Source of the DNA: a virus
Taxonomy: Duplodnaviria > Heunggongvirae > Uroviricota > Caudoviricetes
Reading direction: 5' to 3' (one strand)
Virus record (IMG/VR): IMGVR_UViG_2565956629_000010
DNA: 26,233 bases
Below the pieces are notes generated by a model. It did not search any database. It worked only from the letters and a program-made list of their open reading frames with translations, and was not told where the DNA came from. A program made the position numbers and the translations under genes. This document shows, one piece after another, positions 1 through 14,022 of the stretch (within the stretch, counting starts at the first letter, position 1; each line of letters opens with the position of its first letter).

Positions 1-1053
1 TTACGGGGTAATGCCAACCGCTGCCGCCACTTTGTCGCCACTTGGCAGCGTTGCCAGAGGATTGAAACGGAGCGCCGTTTCCAGATGATCCGGTGCCAGA
101 TGTGCGTAACGCATAGTCATTTTTATATCGTGGTGTCCGAGAATTTTTTGTAAAGCCAGAATGTTTCCACCCGACATCATGAAGTGCGCCGCAAACGTAT
201 GGCGCAGAACGTGTGTGAGTTGACCGCGAGGGAGCACGATAGACGTTTTTTCCATCACGGATAAAAATTGAAAATAGCAGTCTGTGAAGAAATTGAACCC
301 ATCAAGCGCCATGATCTCTTCGTAAAGCTCTTTACTGATAGGGATGCTTCTGTTTTTCTTCCCCTTCGTTCTTACAAAGGTAATTCGGTATTTGGTCACC
401 TGTGAGCGGGTAAGATTTACGGCTTCTCGCCAGCGTGCGCCTGTGCTTAAGCATATCTTAACTACCAGTGCCAGAATTGGGTCCTGACGTTTGCAATCAG
501 CTAGTAATTCAACAATCTGCTCATGGGTAAGCCATGCCATCTCTTTTTCTGCGATGGTGAATTTTCGCATGTTCTCCAGTGGGTTCGGATACGACCATTC
601 GCCCAGGCGGGATAGTTCGCTAAAAACACTACTTAGATAGCTTTGCTCCAGGTTAATGGTGACCGGGCTTGCTCCTTTCTTCCATTTCTCACTGAAGTAG
701 ATCTCACCTGTCAGGCGTTTATCTCGATAGTGGGCAAACATTTTAGAGGTTAGATCAGTTGCAAGGGGATTGCCCAGAGCGTCAACCATCAGCAGCAATT
801 TGTCATAGACATGCTGCCCAGCAGTCAGAGATTTACCATGTAGTTTGAACCATAGCTCAACCACGTCTTTCAGTGTTCGACGATCCACTGATTCACCCAG
901 CCAGGGCTTTGCTTCGGTTTCTTCCATCGTGTGACGCTCAAAAGCCAGTGCTTCGCCTTTGGTGGCGAATTGTTTACGCACACGACGCCCACTACGTCCG
1001 GCGGGGTAACATTCGCAAAGCCATTTTCCTGTGGTGAGTTTTCGTACTGCCAT
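1..1053 (-). CDS. int: P2/186-family tyrosine integrase
   Basis: 350-aa ORF. N-terminus MAVRKLTTGKWLCECYPAGRSGRRVRK is, from memory, typical of P2-like integrases. C-terminal catalytic region has HxxR (HVLRHTFA) and a terminal Tyr (MTMRYAHL). Stop codon is at window position 1-3, so the gene is complete and attL lies outside the window. Confidence 0.9.
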   Translation of the reverse strand: MAVRKLTTGKWLCECYPAGRSGRRVRKQFATKGEALAFERHTMEETEAKPWLGESVDRRTLKDVVELWFKLHGKSLTAGQHVYDKLLLMVDALGNPLATDLTSKMFAHYRDKRLTGEIYFSEKWKKGASPVTINLEQSYLSSVFSELSRLGEWSYPNPLENMRKFTIAEKEMAWLTHEQIVELLADCKRQDPILALVVKICLSTGARWREAVNLTRSQVTKYRITFVRTKGKKNRSIPISKELYEEIMALDGFNFFTDCYFQFLSVMEKTSIVLPRGQLTHVLRHTFAAHFMMSGGNILALQKILGHHDIKMTMRYAHLAPDHLETALRFNPLATLPSGDKVAAAVGITP

Positions 1054-1058
1054 AATAA

Positions 1059-1078
1059 AGCCCTCATATCAGAGGGCT
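1059..1078 (-). promoter_or_regulatory. stem-loop overlapping the int ribosome-binding site
   Basis: Perfect 7-bp inverted repeat AGCCCTC (1059-1065) / GAGGGCT (1072-1078) with a 6-nt loop. On the minus strand the 3' arm contains GAGGG about 7 nt upstream of the int ATG, followed by TTTATTATG. Confidence 0.3.
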
Positions 1079-1139
1079 AAATTTAACTGTATGTTTGACC
1101 AGTGGTCAATGTATGGTTTAGTTTATTCAAACAATGCTT

Positions 1140-2657
1140 TTAATCAAATGATGTGGCCAGTTCAATTAATTCAATGTAATTATGTAAGGCATAAAAAGAT
1201 GTATTCAGACCATTCTCTATAAGGGCTCCTTGCAAATACTTTATAGCTGTATCACCATCAATAGGGCCTTGTTGAGATATAATCATTAGTGAATTTTGCC
1301 CATTGTTTTTTATACTTGATTTAAGCATGTTTATATTATTAATAAAATACAATGCAACATCTAAGTAATTTATTAATGTTAAATTTATTTTGGGCTCGAT
1401 CTGTGAGATGAATAATCTACTGCTCGCCGTTCTATAGATATAATTGACACCTATTCTTTGCTGATTTGTATCAAGATTTAATTCAAGGATGGCTTGAGAA
1501 ACACCTTTTAAATTGGAGCTTTGCTTTATCGAATCAGTGAAACGTTGTGCTGCATTTCTTCGACCAATTAGTCCATCTATAATTTGACGATCCTTATCAT
1601 ATATAATCATTAGCGAAATTATAAAAATATAATCTACTTTCTTTTTGACTAAATCAGATTTAAGAATGTCTATTAACCTTTCAGTATTTCGGATTGAGTC
1701 TCTTAGATTTAACCCAAATGCTTCAAATACGTTGGAAATATTTATTGAAAAGTCTTCTAATGTTGCTGTTAGTGGGTATGTTTTTGATGTGATATTTTCA
1801 AAATCGGTACCAATATAATCACCAACAACACCATTAATTAAATCTTTAAGTTCAGGTTGTTTTAAAGTAAATCTTCTATGAAAAAAACGGCCTAAATAGT
1901 CATTTGCGGAAAAATCATTACCGTAAACATTCTTGATTGAATGTTGTAATTGATCTGTGTCAGTAGCAATAATAAAGACAAAATTTTTAATATCGAATAT
2001 ATGTTTAACAATCTCTAAAAGAGAAATTGCATAATCTGGCCTGCATCTGTCTAATTCATCTATAAAGATAAATATAGGACATGAAAAACTATTTTCATAT
2101 GCCAACCTAGACCATAACGTTAGTTCTTTTTTTAATACCTTAATGCTCTTCAGTTTTTCCTGGTGTTCCTTCAGCATTATTAATGAGGCTTCTTTGGCTA
2201 TATCACCTACGTTATCTACTCCTGCATAAGTCTTGATTAGGCCAGATATGATTTCAGGTAGAACACCTTTTGTAAAGCGTCCGATAGCATGGCCGCTTTG
2301 TATCAATCGAGCATCAAGTTTTCCTGCATATGTTTGCAATTGTTGTGACAAAGAAGAAAAAAGGGTTAAAAATGCATCATCAGAAAAGTCTTGCTTCCAG
2401 GCATCAATGTAAACGCATGGGTGTGCATCTTTTATTGAGTTATAAAATCTCTTTATGAAAAAACTTTTACCAGCTCCCCATTCTGCATTAAGGTTGATTA
2501 CCGTGTTGTTCTTTTGCCCCTTTTCCTTAAGATAAAAATATAGATATTCTGCATAGTGTCTCCGATTAAGTTTGTCTTTGGAAAGAATTTCCTCTTCGTC
2601 GTCTAATATAAAGGTAGTTTCTTCATCCCAGTTCCAATTACAATCACCACATTTCAC
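1140..2657 (-). CDS. KAP-family P-loop NTPase (putative defence or abortive-infection effector)
   Basis: 505-aa ORF. Walker A NAEWGAGKSFF; Walker B-like hhhhDELDRC (IFIFIDELDRCRP), which I recall as characteristic of KAP NTPases. GTG start at 2657 with GGAG about 9 nt upstream. Visibly AT-rich compared with flanking phage genes. Only 25 bp downstream of the preceding gene on the same strand. Confidence 0.55.
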   Translation of the reverse strand: MKCGDCNWNWDEETTFILDDEEEILSKDKLNRRHYAEYLYFYLKEKGQKNNTVINLNAEWGAGKSFFIKRFYNSIKDAHPCVYIDAWKQDFSDDAFLTLFSSLSQQLQTYAGKLDARLIQSGHAIGRFTKGVLPEIISGLIKTYAGVDNVGDIAKEASLIMLKEHQEKLKSIKVLKKELTLWSRLAYENSFSCPIFIFIDELDRCRPDYAISLLEIVKHIFDIKNFVFIIATDTDQLQHSIKNVYGNDFSANDYLGRFFHRRFTLKQPELKDLINGVVGDYIGTDFENITSKTYPLTATLEDFSINISNVFEAFGLNLRDSIRNTERLIDILKSDLVKKKVDYIFIISLMIIYDKDRQIIDGLIGRRNAAQRFTDSIKQSSNLKGVSQAILELNLDTNQQRIGVNYIYRTASSRLFISQIEPKINLTLINYLDVALYFINNINMLKSSIKNNGQNSLMIISQQGPIDGDTAIKYLQGALIENGLNTSFYALHNYIELIELATSFD

Positions 2658-2682
2658 TATGAAGTCTCCATGAAAAATTTAC

Positions 2683-3606
2683 TTAATGTAAACAACTTAT
2701 AATAACTTTTGCAATAAACTCAATATCTGTAAGCGAACATTCAAAAGAGTGATTTTGGGATGAAATATAAACTCGTCCTTTAGGTAGTCGAGTTATCATT
2801 CTAAATGAATTCTCTCCATCAATATTTACTAGCCACTTACCATCATGTACATCTTTAAAACCCATTTCACATATTAATTCAGAGTCTTCGGTAGATACTA
2901 CGAATGCATTTTTTAAATTGGAAGGTAGAAAGCATGGGTCAAATAAATATGAGCCATCATTTATTAACTTGCCATTGATTAATACTTTTTTCACTAATGT
3001 TAAAGTATCTTTATTTTTTGCGTTTTTCATTTCTCCTGTACCAAATGAAATCCATTCAATAGAATGGCCCGTTTCTATTGCACACTGCAAAACCCAGTCT
3101 GCAGGAAAAATGTCACGCATGTATCGTGTGGCTAATGTGCTTTTTGAAATACCTAGGTGATCAGCTAATGCTTGGCGCGTTTTGTAACCGTAAGCCTCGA
3201 CAATTCGTTCTATTGTTGCCTTACCCCCTCGGTTAAAATTCATGAGTTTTTCATTATCGAACTTTATAGTGGGAATGTATACTTCATTGCAAAGGCCATT
3301 AACGGCATGTTTTTCAGAATATTGCTCTGATGAAGGAGCAGTATCTGAACCAAGAACTAACCATTCAATTGATGCTCCTGTTTCTATGGAACATATAACA
3401 ACCCAATCTGCAGGAAAGGTATTACGTGCATATCTGTTGGCCATAGTACTTTGGGAAATACCTAGATGATTACATAATGCCTGTCGTGACTTGAAGCCAT
3501 AGGCTAGGAGTATACGCTCAATAACTTTTTGCCCTCCACGATTCTGCATAACTATTGCTTTCAGATCGTTTTTGATATGGCTAAATTTTAATTTTTGAGT
3601 TGACAT
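2683..3606 (-). CDS. CI-repressor paralog with tandemly duplicated N-terminal HTH domain
   Basis: 307-aa ORF. Two consecutive copies of the CI N-terminal domain (RGGQKVIERILLAYGFKSRQALCNHLGISQSTMANRY...FPADWVVICSIETGASIEWL and RGGKATIERIVEAYGYKTRQALADHLGISKSTLATRYMRDIFPADWVLQCAIETGHSIEWI), then a C-terminal domain homologous to the CTD of the adjacent 191-aa repressor (KLINDGSYLFDPCFLPSNLKNAFV...HDGKWLVNIDGE...ITRLPKGR). Confidence 0.6.
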   Translation of the reverse strand: MSTQKLKFSHIKNDLKAIVMQNRGGQKVIERILLAYGFKSRQALCNHLGISQSTMANRYARNTFPADWVVICSIETGASIEWLVLGSDTAPSSEQYSEKHAVNGLCNEVYIPTIKFDNEKLMNFNRGGKATIERIVEAYGYKTRQALADHLGISKSTLATRYMRDIFPADWVLQCAIETGHSIEWISFGTGEMKNAKNKDTLTLVKKVLINGKLINDGSYLFDPCFLPSNLKNAFVVSTEDSELICEMGFKDVHDGKWLVNIDGENSFRMITRLPKGRVYISSQNHSFECSLTDIEFIAKVIISCLH

Positions 3607-3656
3607 ATTTTTTACACCACAACAAATGCTTTACCAAGCATAAAAACATTCCTATA

Positions 3657-4232
3657 TTACTCAAAGTACTTAACTGTTATGCTTATAATTTTTCCAATAA
3701 TTTCGATTTCTTCTTTTTTACATTCGAAAGCCCTATTTCCACCTTCAACTAAGATTCTTCCACCAGGTAAACGAGTGATATCGCGGATTGTTACTTCGGC
3801 ATCAATACTTATTACCCATTTGCCGTCACGAATATCGTTAAACTCTTTATCGCAAATAAAAACGGAATTGTTATCGGTGATTACAAACGGATTTTTGAGC
3901 GTAGATGGTAGAAATTCTTTATCGAAAATATAAAAACCATCTTCCTGCAAGGTTCCATCAGATAATACATATTTAACGACTTCCATAGTATTTGTATTAC
4001 CTGAAGTTTGCTTTGAACCATGTCCGGTCGTGAGCCAGTTAAGCGAGGCGCCCGTTTCAAGTGCGCACTGGATTACCCATTCAGCAGGGAATGAGTCACG
4101 CATATAGCGTGTGGCGAGAGTACTTTTAGAGATTCCTAAGTGATCGCACAACGCCTGTCGAGTCTTGAAGCCATATGCTTCTACCATGCGCTCTATAGCG
4201 CCTCGTCCGCCTTTCTCCAAATTCATGGTCAC
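3657..4232 (-). CDS. cI: 186-type CI immunity repressor
   Basis: 191-aa ORF divergent from the apl-like gene. N-terminal HTH region (AYGFKTRQALCDHLGISKSTLATRYMRDSFPAEWVIQCALETGASLNWLTTG) and C-terminal domain. Size and position match my recollection of phage 186 CI (about 192 aa). Confidence 0.7.
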   Translation of the reverse strand: MTMNLEKGGRGAIERMVEAYGFKTRQALCDHLGISKSTLATRYMRDSFPAEWVIQCALETGASLNWLTTGHGSKQTSGNTNTMEVVKYVLSDGTLQEDGFYIFDKEFLPSTLKNPFVITDNNSVFICDKEFNDIRDGKWVISIDAEVTIRDITRLPGGRILVEGGNRAFECKKEEIEIIGKIISITVKYFE

Positions 4233-4351
4233 TCCAAGTGAACTTTTGTCTTGACGATTTCATTATGCGATCGTATGTTTATGATGTTCACAAAATACAA
4301 ACGATCCGTATTCGTCCTGATTAATCAACATTAAACGAGGAATGTTGCATC
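4233..4351. promoter_or_regulatory. immunity switch region between cI and apl (candidate lytic and lysogenic promoters and operator half-sites)
   Basis: Rightward candidate: -35 TTGACG (4251-4256), 17-nt spacer, -10 TATGTT (4274-4279). Leftward candidate: -35 TGAACA (complement of 4284-4289), -10 CATAAT (complement of 4262-4267). Inverted half-sites GTGAAC (4238-4243) / GTTCAC (4286-4291) flank them. GAGGAA RBS precedes the apl ATG. Confidence 0.3.
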
Positions 4352-4573
4352 ATGAAACCTAACATTTCAATCACTCTTACCACGCCTCATGTGACTATTG
4401 AACGTTATAGCGAGCTGACAGGGCTATCCATCGATACTATCAATGACATGTTGGCTGATGGACGTCTTATCCGTCACCGTCTGCGGAAAGATAAAAAACG
4501 CGAAAAAGTGATGATCAACATAGCAGCCATGACCGTTGATGCGCTTTCAGAATGCAATCTAAACCTTAATTAG
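4352..4573 (+). CDS. apl: Apl/Cox-like excisionase and switch regulator
   Basis: 73-aa basic ORF immediately divergent from cI, the position of apl (186) or cox (P2). Contains an HTH-like segment ([22 protein letters not shown]). Confidence 0.5.
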
Positions 4574-4605
4574 TTCGATTCTGAAATACATCAGAGGCAT
4601 TGACC

Positions 4606-5115
4606 ATGTTTGATTACCAAGTTTCCAAACACCCGCATTTTGATGAAGCCTGTAGAGCTTTTGCACTTCGTCACAATATGGCGAAGCTGGCAGAACGTGC
4701 AGGAATGAATGTCCAGACTCTGCGAAACAAACTCAACCCAGATCAACCGCATCAGCTCAATGCGCCAGAAATCTGGCTGCTTACCGATCTGACTGAAGAT
4801 TCAACGCTGGTAGATGGCTTTCTGGCACAGATTCACTGCCTGCCATGTGTACCGATTAATGAGGTGGCAAAAGAGAAACTGCCGCATTACGTCATGAGTG
4901 CAACTGCAGAGATAGGGCGTGTCGCGGCAGGTGCGGTTTCTGGCGATGTAAAAACCAGTGCAGGCCGTCGTGATGCGATCAGCAGCATTAACTCTGTTAC
5001 ACGACTGATGGCGCTGGCTGCTGTTTCATTGCAGGCCCGTTTACAGGCTAATCCTGCGATGGCGAGTGCAGTTGATACCGTGACTGGCCTCGGTGCTTCA
5101 TTCGGTTTGCTGTGA
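4606..5115 (+). CDS. cII: CII-like lysogeny-establishment activator
   Basis: ATG at 4606 with GAGG RBS at 4594-4597; the ORF-track start at 4600 is a TTG. Gives 169 aa, the size I recall for 186 CII. N-terminus [43 protein letters not shown] contains an HTH and matches my memory of 186 CII. Confidence 0.6.
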
Positions 5116-9574: not shown

Positions 9575-9763
9575 ATGCAGGACTATTTTTTGGAGTCTTT
9601 GAAGCTCCAGCGCATTGATTTTTTTCTTAAGCTTGTAGCGGCTAGTGAGTGTAGTGATGAAGAGAAGGGGCTGGCTCTGCAGTGGGTTTCTGAATTGACT
9701 GATGAACTCATGGCAAAAATCAGAAGCCACGAATACAACCGCTCAATGGATGTCATCAGCTGA
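9575..9763 (+). CDS. small SOS-controlled protein, possible Tum-like antirepressor
   Basis: ATG at 9575 with AGGAGG at 9565-9570. 62 aa. Sits between the LexA box and the DinI-like gene; in 186 the LexA-controlled gene at this position is tum, whose C-terminal part I recall as DinI-like. Assignment is by position only. Confidence 0.35.
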   Translation: MQDYFLESLKLQRIDFFLKLVAASECSDEEKGLALQWVSELTDELMAKIRSHEYNRSMDVIS

Positions 9764-9773
9764 GGTGACTTTT

Positions 9774-10007
9774 ATGCGCATTGAAATAATGATCGATAAA
9801 GAGCAGAAGATTAGCCAGTCTACCCTGGACGCCCTTGAATCCGAGCTTTACCGCAATCTGCGCCCCCTGTATCCCAAAACGGTAATTCGCATTCGCAAAG
9901 GTAGCTCTAACGGTGTGGAACTAACCGGACTGCAACTGGATGAAGAAAGAAAACAAGTGATGAAAATTATGCAGAAGGTGTGGGAGGACGACAGCTGGCT
10001 GCATTAA
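9774..10007 (+). CDS. dinI: DinI-family protein
   Basis: ATG at 9774 with GAGG at 9763-9766. 77 aa. MRIEIMIDKEQKISQSTLDALESELYRNLRPLYP...KVWEDDSWL parallels E. coli DinI as I recall it (MRIEV...ETWESADDWF), including the acidic C-terminus. Confidence 0.7.
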   Translation: MRIEIMIDKEQKISQSTLDALESELYRNLRPLYPKTVIRIRKGSSNGVELTGLQLDEERKQVMKIMQKVWEDDSWLH

Positions 10008-10199
10008 GAAATGTTGCCCCCAGGAGGATTCATTCTGATGGGGGCTAGTTTGGGCAATGAGTGAAATAAGGCGTAAGGTGGGCGGTTATTTTGATAAGTG
10101 ATCGTCCGCTTTGTGTCAGAAGCAGAAGTGGGAGTGTCTGAGACTCTCTAAAAGTTGATGATTCACTTACAAAACCATTTTCCTGATGGATGCTTACAC

Positions 10200-10535
10200 T
10201 TACGAATGATCATTCTGTTTAGTCTTCATGAGAAAATCCCGAATCTTTGCCAAGTTTGAATTTTCGGGGATTGAATCCATGTACGGATCACGCTCAAACA
10301 CTAATTGCTCAGATTCAACGAAAGCCTGCCACTCTACTGGGTCTAGCTCAAATCCCATTGCTGTCATATCACTTTCATCTTCCCCCTCGATCCAGTGGAC
10401 TAAATAAAACAATTCATCATCAGGAGAATCATCCTCACCATCAACAATATCAACATCGGTTACAGTGATACGTAGGGTGGGATCGATTTTTGAGACATAA
10501 ATTCCTAACTGTGGTATAGGGGGAATATTGTTCAT
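10200..10535 (-). CDS. small highly acidic protein of unknown function
   Basis: 111-aa ORF. ATG at 10535 with AAGGAG about 8 nt upstream on the minus strand. Runs of D/E (DVDIVDGEDDSPDDE, IEGEDESD). Sits between the replication/SOS module and cos, where P2 carries old/tin. Confidence 0.5.
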   Translation of the reverse strand: MNNIPPIPQLGIYVSKIDPTLRITVTDVDIVDGEDDSPDDELFYLVHWIEGEDESDMTAMGFELDPVEWQAFVESEQLVFERDPYMDSIPENSNLAKIRDFLMKTKQNDHS

Positions 10536-10847
10536 GGAAACTCCTTTTATTGGTGTTTGCTATTTGAATAAAAATACGCCAAACAGAGTGTTAACTGTGA
10601 ATATGGAAAGAATCGTTGTAAGTACCCCGCTTAGGTGTCCCATTCTATTTTAGAGGTTCTCGTGCATATGGATTATGTTATCTGAAAGTTAACTTCCGCT
10701 TCCCGTTCACAGCGAACATTCATCTTTGTAAACCCGTATGATCCGTTTTTCAAGTGGCCATTCAGATACGGATTTTTACTTCTTTGACAGTGCATGACTA
10801 TGCTGCATGAAATCGCATGATCGATTGAGGATCGTCTTTGCTCAGAT

Positions 10848-10870
10848 CCGCCAGAACTGGCGGGCTTTTG
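10848..10870 (+). terminator. candidate intrinsic terminator upstream of cos
   Basis: GC-rich inverted repeat CCGCCAG (10848-10854) / CTGGCGG (10857-10863) with a very short loop, followed by GCTTTTG. Confidence 0.3.
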
Positions 10871-10914
10871 CTCATGTCATGCATGTGCATGAAAACCACT
10901 GCATAAAGCGGGCA

Positions 10915-10933
10915 GGCGTGGCGGGGATACGAG
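10915..10933. other. candidate cos site (cohesive-end region)
   Basis: GGCGTGGCGGGGATACGAG followed by CGCGCGC. From memory the P2 left end begins GGCGAGGCGGGGAAAGCAC, giving a 13-nt core match with one mismatch. It is a GC-rich island in an otherwise AT-rich non-coding stretch, and its orientation toward Q is the same as in P2. Confidence 0.4.
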
Positions 10934-11014
10934 CGCGCGCAATGCTATGATCTGGCTCTTTCAAAACTGTTAACGGTTCTTCACATTCTTAAATGATCAT
11001 GGTAGCTTAAGCAT

Positions 11015-11145
11015 GCACATGTAGGCAGATTTGTTGGTTGTGGTATCGCAATCAGTGATCTAAATGTTAGATGGATTCGCCTTCTGACATCCTTGTAGCC
11101 ATTCTTGGGCTGTCCTATGCTTTGCGTAAGAGTGCCTACATGTGC
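11015..11145 (+). ncRNA. putative retron msr-msd locus bounded by a2/a1 inverted repeats
   Basis: Perfect 13-bp inverted repeat GCACATGTAGGCA (11015-11027) / TGCCTACATGTGC (11133-11145) enclosing 105 nt, immediately upstream of the RT gene on the same strand. A G at 11028 directly follows the left repeat (possible branching G). Internal stem ATCTAA-ATG-TTAGAT at about 11058-11072. Possible promoter -35 TTCACA (10980-10985). Confidence 0.5.
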
Positions 11146-11180
11146 CTACCCTAACTGATAATCAAGGTTGATTTTTAGAT

Positions 11181-12938
11181 ATGGCACCCCTATCAATTTT
11201 AGAACGTTTACAAAACGCTGCTAACAGGCAAGATTTGGCTAGTATCTTGAATCTTAAAACTGCTTTTCTTACGGATGTTATTTATCGTTTAAAAGCTGAA
11301 ACGCAGTATACACAATTTACTATTCCTAAAAAAAACGGAGCGCCGAGAGTCATATCAGCACCTACCACTAAGCTCAAAGATATTCAACGTAGATTAGCTG
11401 ATGTTTTATATTTATGTCGTGCAGAAATTTATAAAAAATATAATATTAATCCAGTTTTATCTCATGGGTTTGAAAAAGAAAAGTCAATTATTACGAATGC
11501 TGAACGGCATAGAGGTAAAACGCTACTACTAAATATAGATCTTGAGGATTATTTTGATAGTTTTAATTTTGGACGTGTTAGAGGTTTTTTCTTATCAAAC
11601 AGAGATTTTAGATTAAATAATACTGTTGCTACAACGATCGCACAAATTGCATGTTTTCAGAATGGACTTCCTCAAGGAAGCCCATGCTCTCCAATTATAA
11701 GTAACTTAATCAGTGGAATTCTTGATATAAGATTATCAAAGTTAGCAAAGAAATACGGATGCAATTATTCACGGTATGCTGATGATCTTACATTTTCAAC
11801 TAATAAAAAAACATTTCCAAAAGAGATTGCTGATGTTGGCGGAGAGTCTGTAACCCTAAGTCCAACTTTAATTAAAGAGATTATAAAGGCTGGCTTTAAA
11901 ATAAATGATAAAAAGACAAGGGTTTGTTATAAAACATCACGACAAGATGTTACTGGGTTGACTGTTAATAAAAAAGTGAATGTTGGCAAAGAATATGCAA
12001 AAGTAACGCGTGCAATGGCTCATTCTCTTTATAAAGATGGTTCTTTTGTTATTGTTACTGAATCAGGAAAGATTGAAAAAGGTACATGTGCTAAATTAGA
12101 AGGCCGTTTTGGATTCATTGACTCAATAGATAAATATAATAATTTAAAACTAAAGAACGCAAGACAGTTGGAAAAGTACCAAAGTGTAAATCATGGATTA
12201 AACTACACTGCAAAATTGAATTCGAGAGAAAAAGCCTACAGTTATTTTCTATACTATAAAAATTTTCATGGAATGGAAATGCCAACAATACTCACTGAGG
12301 GTAAAACAGACCGTGTATATTTAAAGTGTGCTTTGAAGTCATTGGCGAATTCATATCCTTTATTGTTTAATTCTTCTGATGATAGCTCTAAAAATGAGTA
12401 TCGTGTTAATTTTTTTAAAGCAACTGAAAAAACAAGCTATTTTCTTGACATTTCTGGCGGTGCTACAGACTTCAAAAGATTTATATTAAGATACCAAGAA
12501 CAAAAAAAGAGGTTCGAGAAATTTAAACCAAAGCACCCTGTTATTATGCTTCTTGATAATGACTCAGGCCCTAAAGATTTATTAAATCACTTAAAGGATA
12601 AAGTAAAAAATTGTCCAAATGATGTTGATACTATTCGTAAGGCAAGGTATACCCACATATTTGACAATCTCTATTTGTTATTAACACCATTGCTTCCTGG
12701 AGGGAAAGAGTCTTGTATGGAGGATTTATTTGATAGCACGGTACTATCAACGGTGCTTGATGGAAAGACATTTAATAAATCTAATGATACGGATACAAAA
12801 ACAGAATATGGTAAGCATGTGTTTTCAACAAAGGTTATAAAGGCAAATTGTAAAACAATTAGTTTTGAAAAGTTTAAAGTTATTTTTGATGGTATTGAGG
12901 AAATTATTGCAGATTATTCAAAGAGGTGCAAAGTATAA
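11181..12938 (+). CDS. retron-type reverse transcriptase with C-terminal Toprim-like domain
   Basis: 585 aa. RT motifs: FTIPKKNGAPRVISAP, LLLNIDLEDYFDSF, LPQGSPCSPIISNL, and the catalytic YADD in YSRYADDLTFS. The C-terminal half has Toprim-like EG..D (PTILTEGKTDRVYL) and DxD (VIMLLDNDSGPKD). AT-rich. Length is close to the 586 aa I recall for the retron-Ec67 RT. Confidence 0.8.
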   Translation: MAPLSILERLQNAANRQDLASILNLKTAFLTDVIYRLKAETQYTQFTIPKKNGAPRVISAPTTKLKDIQRRLADVLYLCRAEIYKKYNINPVLSHGFEKEKSIITNAERHRGKTLLLNIDLEDYFDSFNFGRVRGFFLSNRDFRLNNTVATTIAQIACFQNGLPQGSPCSPIISNLISGILDIRLSKLAKKYGCNYSRYADDLTFSTNKKTFPKEIADVGGESVTLSPTLIKEIIKAGFKINDKKTRVCYKTSRQDVTGLTVNKKVNVGKEYAKVTRAMAHSLYKDGSFVIVTESGKIEKGTCAKLEGRFGFIDSIDKYNNLKLKNARQLEKYQSVNHGLNYTAKLNSREKAYSYFLYYKNFHGMEMPTILTEGKTDRVYLKCALKSLANSYPLLFNSSDDSSKNEYRVNFFKATEKTSYFLDISGGATDFKRFILRYQEQKKRFEKFKPKHPVIMLLDNDSGPKDLLNHLKDKVKNCPNDVDTIRKARYTHIFDNLYLLLTPLLPGGKESCMEDLFDSTVLSTVLDGKTFNKSNDTDTKTEYGKHVFSTKVIKANCKTISFEKFKVIFDGIEEIIADYSKRCKV

Positions 12939-12948
12939 CTGTAATTAC

Positions 12949-12972
12949 AGGCAAAGAGTATGCTCTTTGCCT
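12949..12972. terminator. hairpin between the convergent RT and portal genes
   Basis: 10-bp perfect stem AGGCAAAGAG / CTCTTTGCCT with 4-nt loop TATG, followed on the plus strand by TGTATTGT. Lies in the 49-bp gap between the RT stop (12938) and the Q stop (12988). Confidence 0.45.
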
Positions 12973-12987
12973 TGTATTGTGGGACGA

Positions 12988-14022
12988 TTACATATCTAAG
13001 TTATATTCTGTAAATGCGATAATATCTGTACCTAACCAGACATTAATCTCCTTGATCCGTTTTTGCATTGATATCAATTCGTTTCTTACGAATACCTTAC
13101 TAGCCTTTTCCACATCCCCAAACCCCCCAACATTATTAGGCATAATCCCCATCATTTGCGGCGGCACGCGGTGCGCAGCCATCATGTCATCGCGGCTGAC
13201 ATTTTTGATATTCAGAAACTCATCCTTCGCCGCGACCTCTGACAACGGGATAATCTGAAGCCCGTCTTTTTTGCCGTTAGGCGAGTACATAAACAGATTG
13301 CGGAAGTTGCCAGGGCCTTTGGCGCTTTTCATCGCATTGCGGAGGTTGTTCACATCCTCCTGGTTCTGCGCGGCATCGGTCATGTACATGATGAAGCCTG
13401 CATGACTACCGTTAATGTAATATTTGCGGCGGAACAGCGTGGCGGACTCGTTGAGCAAAGCGGATGGGATGGCAGAAAGATAGCCGGGCAGGCCGTAGAT
13501 CTCCTGATTAATATCCGGTTCCATCAGATGAAAAATGCTGCCTTTCGTGAACTGATACGGCTGGGTTGTCATACCGTATTGCACAAACCAGTAGATATCC
13601 AGGTCTAACCCGCGTCGGGTATATTTTGCCAGGGCAGGCTCAAGGGCGATAACTTCACCGAAGCGGTTCGTGCGTTTCTCCAGGTAGGCGTTACCAAATA
13701 CCAGGTAGTCCTGCACAAAACGTGAAAAAGCCTGCTGGCTGAGCAGCGGGTGAGGGATATAGGTACTGGTCAGAATGTTGCACTTTACTGCAATCGGGGA
13801 ACTGTGATGCACGGCAGCGCGGAAGGTGCGCGCCAGTCCGTCAAAGCTGACGGGCGGCTCATACCAACGGTCCATCTGTACGCATTCCACATAGTCCAGT
13901 AATTCTCGGCGGTCCAGAACAGGAACGGGATCGCCGAAGCTGAATGCTTCGGCTGTAGTTTGACTTTTAAGCTGGATCTGATTCGTCGCCGCAGCGCGGT
14001 TCTTCTTACTCTTTCCCATCAA
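12988..14022 (-). CDS. Q: portal protein (P2 gpQ-like)
   Basis: 344 aa, same length as P2 Q as I recall it. Overlaps the terminase gene by 4 nt and is transcribed with it, divergent from the O operon. Confidence 0.85.
   Translation of the reverse strand: MMGKSKKNRAAATNQIQLKSQTTAEAFSFGDPVPVLDRRELLDYVECVQMDRWYEPPVSFDGLARTFRAAVHHSSPIAVKCNILTSTYIPHPLLSQQAFSRFVQDYLVFGNAYLEKRTNRFGEVIALEPALAKYTRRGLDLDIYWFVQYGMTTQPYQFTKGSIFHLMEPDINQEIYGLPGYLSAIPSALLNESATLFRRKYYINGSHAGFIMYMTDAAQNQEDVNNLRNAMKSAKGPGNFRNLFMYSPNGKKDGLQIIPLSEVAAKDEFLNIKNVSRDDMMAAHRVPPQMMGIMPNNVGGFGDVEKASKVFVRNELISMQKRIKEINVWLGTDIIAFTEYNLDM

Follow-up and report, generated by a model that had tools for sequence, protein, structure and literature searches.

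A tandem-head 186-type CI gene behind the resident repressor of a P2/186-like prophage and its possible role in a second immunity

The viral record IMGVR_UViG_2565956629_000010 (IMG/VR; Caudoviricetes) is a stretch of 26,233 nucleotides, referred to below as the window, which represents the left two-thirds of a P2/186-like prophage of E. coli and encodes two CI repressors of the coliphage 186 type. One of them, a canonical protein of 191 residues, owns the genetic switch; the other is a protein of 307 residues in which two N-terminal DNA-binding domains (NTDs, here called heads) follow each other in one chain and precede the C-terminal domain (CTD). Judging by its sequence, the 307-residue product is an intact immunity repressor of a tandem-head subclass of 186-type CIs, defined in this analysis as proteins of 290–330 residues composed of a head, a linker of about 35 residues, a second head and a CTD. 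The anatomy and the origin of this tandem cI are well supported, and both are held here with high confidence; the puzzle of a second repressor is largely explained by recombination between heteroimmune relatives. As for its function, the explanation ranked first is that the gene is a passenger of the lysogenic operon that may confer, in trans, a second immunity against phages of the tandem-CI type, a proposal for which our confidence is evenly divided.

Architecture of the tandem-head CI

The 307-residue protein contains a gapless internal repeat, residues 11–87 aligning with residues 114–190 at 60% identity (E 6e-32), and Pfam places PF07022 (Phage_CI_repr) on two stretches of it (residues 22–91 and 125–194, E 3.8e-56), followed by PF16452 (Phage_CI_C) at residues 207–302 (E 1.5e-25). 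Its sequence matches in the Protein Data Bank (PDB) are the 186 CI entries 2FJR (E 1e-22) and 2FKD, the former being matched end to end by head 2 and the CTD. An earlier note, made from the window's sequence alone, had proposed two 186-type CI N-terminal domains in one chain and a CTD homologous to the CI oligomerisation domain, and these comparisons bear out both points. Compared with the resident 191-residue CI, residues 122–302 are 56% identical (E 2e-77) and head 1 is 58% identical. The note had also quoted the recognition regions as QALADHLGISKSTLATRYMRD for head 2, QALCDHLGISKSTLATRYMRD for the 191-residue CI and ISQSTMANRYARN for head 1, and the near-identity that it saw between head 2 and the resident CI is confirmed, the two being at most one residue apart.

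Ahead of head 1 lies an N-terminal extension that is typical of the head class described below as class A and is partly repeated ahead of head 2, the repeat alignment beginning at residue 11. The linker between the heads varies in sequence and length among homologues and has no consensus in its alignment columns. An AlphaFold2 monomer model, built on 45 homologues, agrees with this division: it predicts two helical heads of five to six helices each, a beta-rich CTD with a predicted local distance difference test score (pLDDT) above 90, and a disordered linker (residues 89–123, pLDDT below 50). With a low linker pLDDT and a predicted template modelling score (pTM) of 0.40, the model shows domains strung like beads, none of them fixed in position relative to the others. 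PF00717 (Peptidase_S24) has no match in the tandem CI, which separates this protein from the self-cleaving LexA and lambda CI type, and only a sub-threshold one in the resident CI (17.1 bits, cut-off 23.3). In PADLOC-DB 2.0, no model is matched by either repressor at E ≤0.01.

Tandem-head CIs in other prophages

A protein homologue search gave 610 matches, the best 120 of which were inspected for head count together with the window's 191-residue CI. Two heads are present in 47 of these 120, and 45 of the 47 are full-length (291–330 residues); at 90% identity, the tandem-head proteins among the best 120 form about 45 clusters in Enterobacteriaceae, with hosts in Escherichia, Salmonella, Klebsiella, Enterobacter, Citrobacter, Kosakonia and Edwardsiella. 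Apart from the window's own lineage, all contexts examined have the tandem CI as their sole repressor, at a distance of about 90 bp from apl. These contexts comprise the Klebsiella phage 4LV2017, the contigs of homologues P0002, P0004 and P0005, the loci L003 and L004 of species-representative genomes, and about 55 IMG/VR loci, and they include E. coli and Salmonella prophages at the rcdA/ybjL site. The usual role of a tandem CI is, as these positions indicate, that of the only repressor of P2/186-like (Elveevirus-type) prophages, on a compact switch of about 90 bp that contains several half-sites of the GTGA type.

A canonical cI ahead of a tandem cI was found in only 5 of the 80 loci of an IMG/VR survey for tandem CIs, all of them window-like contigs, and a second survey of 80 loci, seeded with the 191-residue CI, returned the same five. 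Because the same near-identical loci recur in both surveys, the double-repressor layout is one lineage and probably one event. The earlier view that the protein is unusual thus needs to be divided: tandem-head CIs themselves are widespread and normally the sole switch repressor, and what is rare is a canonical cI in front of one. The literature searched contains no description of tandem-head 186-type CIs and nothing relevant on 4LV2017 or Phage_CI_repr.

The two heads have different relatives. Head 1 belongs to a separate NTD class, class A, recognised by the motif QSTMANRYARD and the 21-residue N-terminal extension, and class-A heads also occur in single-headed CIs of 201–209 residues from Enterobacter, Buttiauxella, Lelliottia, Pantoea, Xenorhabdus and Photorhabdus. 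Residues 1–86 are 68–72% identical to single-headed CIs of Dryocola, Buttiauxella, Enterobacter and Lelliottia, compared with 60% to the protein's own head 2. The first heads of tandem CIs fall into four classes, SQSTMANRYARD (35 of 46), SSSTLANRYTRD, SASTMGTRWMRD and SKSTLATRYMRD, and in none of the tandem CIs classified is head 1 closest to head 2 of the same protein. From this distribution, the tandem form appears to have been assembled from heads of different CI classes, either more than once or long ago with later exchange of the first head. A recent duplication within the gene was considered and rejected, since in every tandem CI classified the nearest relatives of head 1 lie in other proteins. 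The description of the gene as a paralog with a diverged first copy is therefore replaced by one in which head 1 is of a separate class and the gene arrived by recombination.

A profile scan of genome contigs with the head-1 alignment returned mostly single-headed class-A CIs of Xenorhabdus, Photorhabdus and Pantoea, which aided the classification of head 1, and no further double-repressor loci among those contigs. In Xenorhabdus and Photorhabdus (loci L015–L061), single-headed class-A-like CIs of 201–208 residues are present in nearly every species representative; many adjoin a RepA-like gene, without recognisable apl, cII or int, and may be P2-derived remnants. Breaks behind head 2 occur in two tandem cI genes, that of Dryocola sp. 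BD586 (L003 7995–8690), of which a 231-residue two-head open reading frame (ORF) without CTD is left, and that of L087 (6001–6940), which is split into ORFs of 237 and 97 residues. They could be natural head-only variants or pseudogenes.

Origin of the locus by recombination

On the minus strand of the window, the order is cI191, a nine-codon remnant ORF, tandem cI, a KAP-family NTPase gene and int, which matches the layout of the 186 lysogenic operon (Table 1). The switch-adjacent position is held by the 191-residue CI, and the start of the tandem cI lies 626 bp farther away.

Two phage types account for this mosaic. Compared with 4LV2017 by blastn, int is 96% identical, the 5' two-thirds of the tandem cI (3039–3614) 79% and the region from apl onward 86–96%, and window positions 3615–4337, with cI191 and its switch, replace 65 bp of the 4LV2017 switch. 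Compared with the cI189-only prophage of E. coli strain 64 at the rcdA/ybjL site, int is 97% identical and the sequence from 3616 rightward 91–97%, and window positions 1116–3615, with the KAP gene and the tandem cI, replace about 295 bp. By megablast, homology to the cI191 cassette begins exactly at 3616 in 513 E. coli genomes, BL21 included, whose cI is about 89% identical to the resident cI191 at the nucleotide level. Since homology to 4LV2017 ends at 3614 and homology to the cI189-only type starts at 3616, the joint is placed at 3611–3618. It left 8 bp of native upstream DNA in front of the tandem cI, whose former pR has lost its -10 element and operators; the -35 hexamer TTGACA survived because it overlaps the start codon. 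The remnant ORF and the tandem cI may be translationally coupled, since 5 nt separate the stop of the former from the ATG of the latter. The blastn homology to the 4LV2017 tandem cI is confined to 3039–3614 and the CTD has no nucleotide similarity to it, which makes the tandem cI itself a mosaic.

Both parental phage types sit between rcdA and ybjL. We infer that the tandem cI was acquired through recombination between heteroimmune relatives sharing this attachment site, either by one illegitimate deletion in a tandem double lysogen or by one homologous and one illegitimate crossover. Another IMG/VR contig, 2609459890_000006 (L148), carries two cII-cI-int modules about 4.8 kb apart, which suggests that arrays able to yield such hybrids exist.

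The block of int, KAP, tandem cI and cI is present in 17 of the 5426 complete E. coli genomes surveyed, at 99.4–100% identity, among them enteropathogenic E. coli (EPEC) E2348/69, which is represented by four separate records. Five IMG/VR contigs, each with at least 99% identity to the window, contain the block as well. Ec1117 is 100% and EPEC E2348/69 99.7% identical to the window over the block. The sources of the lineage are humans, dogs, pigs, river water, seawater and oregano. In six copies of the tandem cI compared with the window, there are no indels or stops, and the differences sum to 10 synonymous and 5 non-synonymous ones, none in either head. The E2348/69 prophage may be a defective copy: its block of baseplate and tail-fibre genes (L062 23232–26717) has the opposite orientation to that of the window, and the annotation marks one virion morphogenesis gene as truncated.

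Table 1. Coordinates of the tandem cI, its domains and the surrounding features in the window
Feature	Position	Strand	Basis
Tandem-head 186-type CI gene (NTD1-linker-NTD2-CTD), 307 aa, ATG start	2683..3606	-	ORF, internal repeat, Pfam, PDB matches, AlphaFold2 model
N-terminal extension, residues 1–21 (MSTQKLKFSHIKNDLKAIVMQ)	3544..3606	-	F8, R9 and H10 conserved in homologue alignment
Head 1 (NTD1), residues 22–91, class A, recognition region GISQSTMANRYARN	3334..3543	-	Domain matches, class assignment
Inter-head linker, residues 92–124 (33 residues), predicted disordered	3235..3333	-	pLDDT, alignments
Head 2 (NTD2), residues 125–194, recognition region GISKSTLATRYMRD shared with resident 191-aa CI	3025..3234	-	
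C-terminal oligomerisation-type domain, PF16452	2686..3024	-	Pfam, blastn, AlphaFold2
Leftover -35 hexamer TTGACA of the tandem CI's former pR (putative promoter), overlapping the start codon	3600..3605	+	Comparison with 4LV2017 switch TTGACA-N17-TATTCT
Recombination joint	3611..3618	.	blastn, megablast
Nine-codon remnant ORF (MLGKAFVVV, stop), 5' end of a 63-aa gene that follows cI in cI189-only prophages	3612..3641	-	Alignment to L149 2638–2663
Resident canonical CI, 191 aa, GTG start, owns switch	3657..4232	-	ORF, Pfam
Resident pR/pL switch	4233..4351	.	Consensus matches
apl-like gene (73 aa, 4352–4573) and cII (4600–5115), rightward switch side	4352..5115	+	ORF calls, Pfam
KAP-family P-loop NTPase, 505 aa, co-cargo in the cI-int gap	1140..2657	-	PF07693 E 1e-45; PADLOC PDC-S20 E 8e-78
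Integrase, last gene of the presumed lysogenic operon	1..1053	-	ORF; 96–97% nucleotide identity to both parental phage types

Switches and operators

The switches of tandem-CI phages span 88–96 bp between cI and apl (4LV2017: L001 3845–3932; also L064–L127) and are far more conserved than their repressors, which have 44–62% protein identity. Read from the cI start codon (CAT), the consensus begins CAT-..-TG(T/C/A)GA(T/A)CC-TATTCT-CCGnnn-TGTGA(A/T)GTT-N3-5-GTCACGA-..- and continues after GTCACGA with -..-GCTCACCACAAG-..- to the apl ATG. The spacer between the invariant TGTGA and TCAC is variable, with indels. In the left half, two direct TGTGA elements flank the -10, an arrangement also found in single-headed class-A CI phages, and the right half (GTCAC, CTCAC) is found in tandem-CI phages only. 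This distribution fits a model in which head 1 would read the left elements and head 2 the right ones. The GTGA/TCAC core is the same as in the FL, FR and pB sites of 186, and the recognition helices are near-invariant across the CI family, so specificity probably lies in the layout and the flanking bases.

At the resident switch, promoters and operators were assigned from consensus matches only. It contains a 186 A-type palindrome, TCAC-N5-GTGA, at 4229–4241 and a putative pR, TTGACG-N17-TATGTT, at 4251–4279, and its pR spacer has TTATGCGATC in common with the tandem-type switches. Flanking sites of the FL/FR type were looked for as candidates for either CI and rejected, the A-type palindrome occurring only once near the switch; the sole other one-mismatch copy, at 13712, is within chance expectation.

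A tandem-type operator, as defined from switch conservation (GTGA-N8-10-TCAC), has no match in the window or in the whole E2348/69 prophage, against 2.4–3.0 expected by chance, and the direct TGTGA pair has none there either, against 0.04–0.06 expected. An insulating terminator or structured element between cI191 and the tandem cI was also sought, and neither a terminator-like site nor a stable hairpin was found between the two genes (hairpin z = -0.15), so read-through from pL/pE, the pattern of the 186 lysogenic operon, is the expected source of expression.

A second immunity and its alternatives

Heteroimmunity against related phages was among the roles that the earlier note had listed, and it now ranks first, although the case for it is no stronger than balanced. 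According to this proposal, recombination would have cut the tandem cI from its native compact switch of about 90 bp and put cI191 and its operators in front. In the lysogen, the tandem cI would be co-transcribed from pL/pE, and its product, probably having no cognate operator in its own prophage, would act as a repressor at the early promoter of tandem-CI-type phages that superinfect the cell. In this way, the lysogen would gain a second immunity specificity, and the hybrid phage itself would escape that immunity. Potential targets are frequent, since the head-1 segment is matched over at least 80% of its length in 239 of the 5426 E. coli genomes (about 4%).

Several points weigh against this proposal. 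All carriers of the arrangement belong to a single young lineage (99.4–100% identity), whose persistence is a poor guide to selection, and with so few substitutions neither selection nor constraint can be proved. The CTD is unlike that of 4LV2017, so binding to tandem-type operators is deduced from the two conserved heads only. The ribosome-binding context of the tandem cI is weak, and, as head 2 shares its recognition region with the resident CI and the two switch types have TTATGCGATC in common, action on the prophage's own switch is possible.

The serious rival is that the tandem cI is a neutral relic, a recent by-product of the hybridising recombination that is intact for want of time and has no role, which is possible although we would not expect it. 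The confinement of the arrangement to one lineage (17 of 5426 genomes and 5 of 80 loci in each IMG/VR survey), the identity of at least 99.4% among all copies and the loss of the gene's own promoter and operators all speak for it, and cI189-only prophages, with the same pB region, manage without a tandem cI. However, no copy has a stop, a frameshift or a head-domain substitution, synonymous differences outnumber non-synonymous ones, the lineage is spread over hosts and habitats as diverse as those named above, and the gene stands within an operon expected to be transcribed in every lysogen. A role of the tandem CI in repressing the late-activator promoter pB was also considered as a reason for its retention and rejected: 4LV2017, strain 64 and E2348/69, one of each immunity type, have near-identical pB regions, and pB can thus do without the tandem CI.

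It is unlikely that the tandem CI instead modulates the resident switch, through head 2 on the resident half-sites, through co-assembly of its CTD with the 191-residue CI, or as a sink for a Tum-like antirepressor, and so alters lysogen stability or the induction threshold. Such a role would agree with the single residue that separates the recognition regions of head 2 and the resident CI, with the 56% identity over head 2 and the CTD, with the TTATGCGATC shared between the resident pR spacer and tandem-type switches, and with the presence of a DinI/Tum-like ORF. But the head-2 helix is the same in 4LV2017 and hence ancestral rather than adapted to the neighbour, and head 2 with the CTD is nearest to other single CIs (70–72%), not to the neighbour (56%), so there is no sign of co-adaptation or gene conversion. 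The DinI-like ORF itself (9702–10007, plus strand; PF06183, E 1e-22) lies behind the replication gene, where 186 has its Tum antirepressor, and its product may act on one or both CIs. The decoy, antirepressor and mixed-oligomer ideas of the earlier note gained no support from this analysis, but they may still apply.

The suggestion that the protein regulates the downstream NTPase, or acts as its sensor in a two-gene defence module, is not supported and is very improbable. The two genes are neighbours in the same orientation, with 25 nt between them, and every copy of the lineage has both. However, unrelated cargo follows other tandem CIs, the NTPase matches PDC-S20, an S-class candidate family of PADLOC, whereas the tandem CI matches no PADLOC model, and phage records contain no KAP homologue above 31% identity, hence no conserved pairing can be shown. 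That the ORF is an assembly or annotation artefact fusing two separate cI-like genes, a concern of the earlier note, is refuted by its uninterrupted copies in 17 complete genomes and 5 viral contigs and by the 45 homologous protein clusters of the same architecture, and its probability is negligible.

The cI-int interval and other cargo

The tandem cI shares the interval between cI and int with a candidate defence gene. In relatives, this interval holds GmrSD_N and HEPN genes, or unknown genes together with ASCH; here, it holds the KAP NTPase, which matches the PADLOC phage-defence candidate PDC-S20 (E 8e-78) and is more weakly similar to PifA and QatA. The setting resembles the defence hotspots of P2-like prophages (PMC9122126; PMC13586616), in that the tandem cI lies beside a candidate defence NTPase in the interval between integrase and early region, and for P2-like phages a 2026 survey (PMC13586616) lists the interval from integrase to primase among the minor hotspots of defence genes. 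A term search of that survey finds "repressor" once and no mention of repressors as hotspot cargo.

Directly upstream of the int start, a GC-rich hairpin with a 7-bp stem (AGCCCTC...GAGGGCT, 1059–1078, minus strand) lies in a stretch 96% conserved with 4LV2017; it could be a terminator, an attenuator or a control element of int translation.

The A-Q interval is the main cargo hotspot of P2-like phages. In the window, it corresponds to the block 10018–13054, which is absent from the strain-64 prophage and contains a retron RT-Toprim type I-C gene for a reverse transcriptase of 585 residues (11181–12938, plus strand; PADLOC E 3e-223, Pfam RVT_1).

Comparison with known systems

The closest well-described relative is coliphage 186, whose CI is described as a 14-mer wheel (PMC3675496), an assembly of seven dimers with DNA wrapping. 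The tandem CI shares PF07022 and PF16452 with 186 CI, to which its head 2 and CTD align end to end, and differs from it in the extra N-terminal head and the disordered linker of about 33 residues. The neighbourhood of int, cI, apl and cII is alike, and the GTGA/TCAC half-sites resemble FL, FR and pB of 186; however, the 186 switch spans about 130 bp, compared with about 90 bp for the native tandem-CI switch, the half-site layout differs, and the window's tandem cI does not stand at the switch at all.

The same tandem architecture is found in the CI of Klebsiella phage 4LV2017, an Elveevirus (ARB15674.1, 313 residues), which is 62% identical; with the E. coli and Salmonella homologues P0002–P0006, identities range over 55–62% and the gene order is the same. 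At the nucleotide level, 4LV2017 is 79% identical over both heads and 96% over the integrase. In 4LV2017, the tandem CI is the only repressor, 88 bp from apl, whereas in the window it stands behind a canonical cI, and the CTD and the downstream cargo differ.

Heteroimmune pairs of the P2 family (P2, P2 Hy dis and W-phi) differ mainly in repressor and operator layout (PMC1904263; PMC1904268). The gain proposed here is alike, namely one immunity type without sensitivity to the other, although the P2 C repressors belong to a different protein family. A prophage with two such repressors in tandem is not described in these two papers.

Engineered single-chain 434 repressors also carry two DNA-reading units per chain. 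Natural two-unit proteins of other families include an XRE protein of phiCDKH01 with two helix-turn-helix domains in one chain (PMC11172241) and a monomeric, two-domain mycobacteriophage repressor (PMC9283540). As in these, one chain of the tandem CI could read two half-sites without dimerising. Unlike in these, its two heads are of different CI classes, and with the oligomerisation domain behind them a dimer would carry four heads.

Implications

Taken together, it is tentatively proposed that tandem-head 186-type CIs are natural single-chain switch repressors, which may have arisen repeatedly when heads from separate immunity classes were joined, and each chain of which would read two half-sites of the GTGA type and so let the switch shrink to about 90 bp. 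Here, a rival's repressor of this kind would have been reused as a mobile anti-phage gene in a defence hotspot, where it would extend superinfection immunity. This combined picture is held with less confidence than the second immunity considered by itself.

Coliphage 186 CI serves as a reference for cooperative control of genes through a protein wheel, and a widespread natural two-head variant with a much shorter switch would offer a test of how specificity and cooperativity depend on the number of heads, the length of the linker and the arrangement of half-sites. EPEC E2348/69 and 16 other complete E. coli genomes represent a natural experiment, in which two complete repressors of different immunity types stand in one prophage. 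If the tandem CI works in trans, repressor genes would be cargo that prophages exchange to exclude competitors, and new combinations of immunity could arise through hybrids between co-resident prophages. Even if the tandem CI has no function, the locus is a cleanly resolved example of how a mosaic immunity region originates. Both the tandem-head class and the possible reuse of a rival's repressor as cargo are therefore worth experiments.

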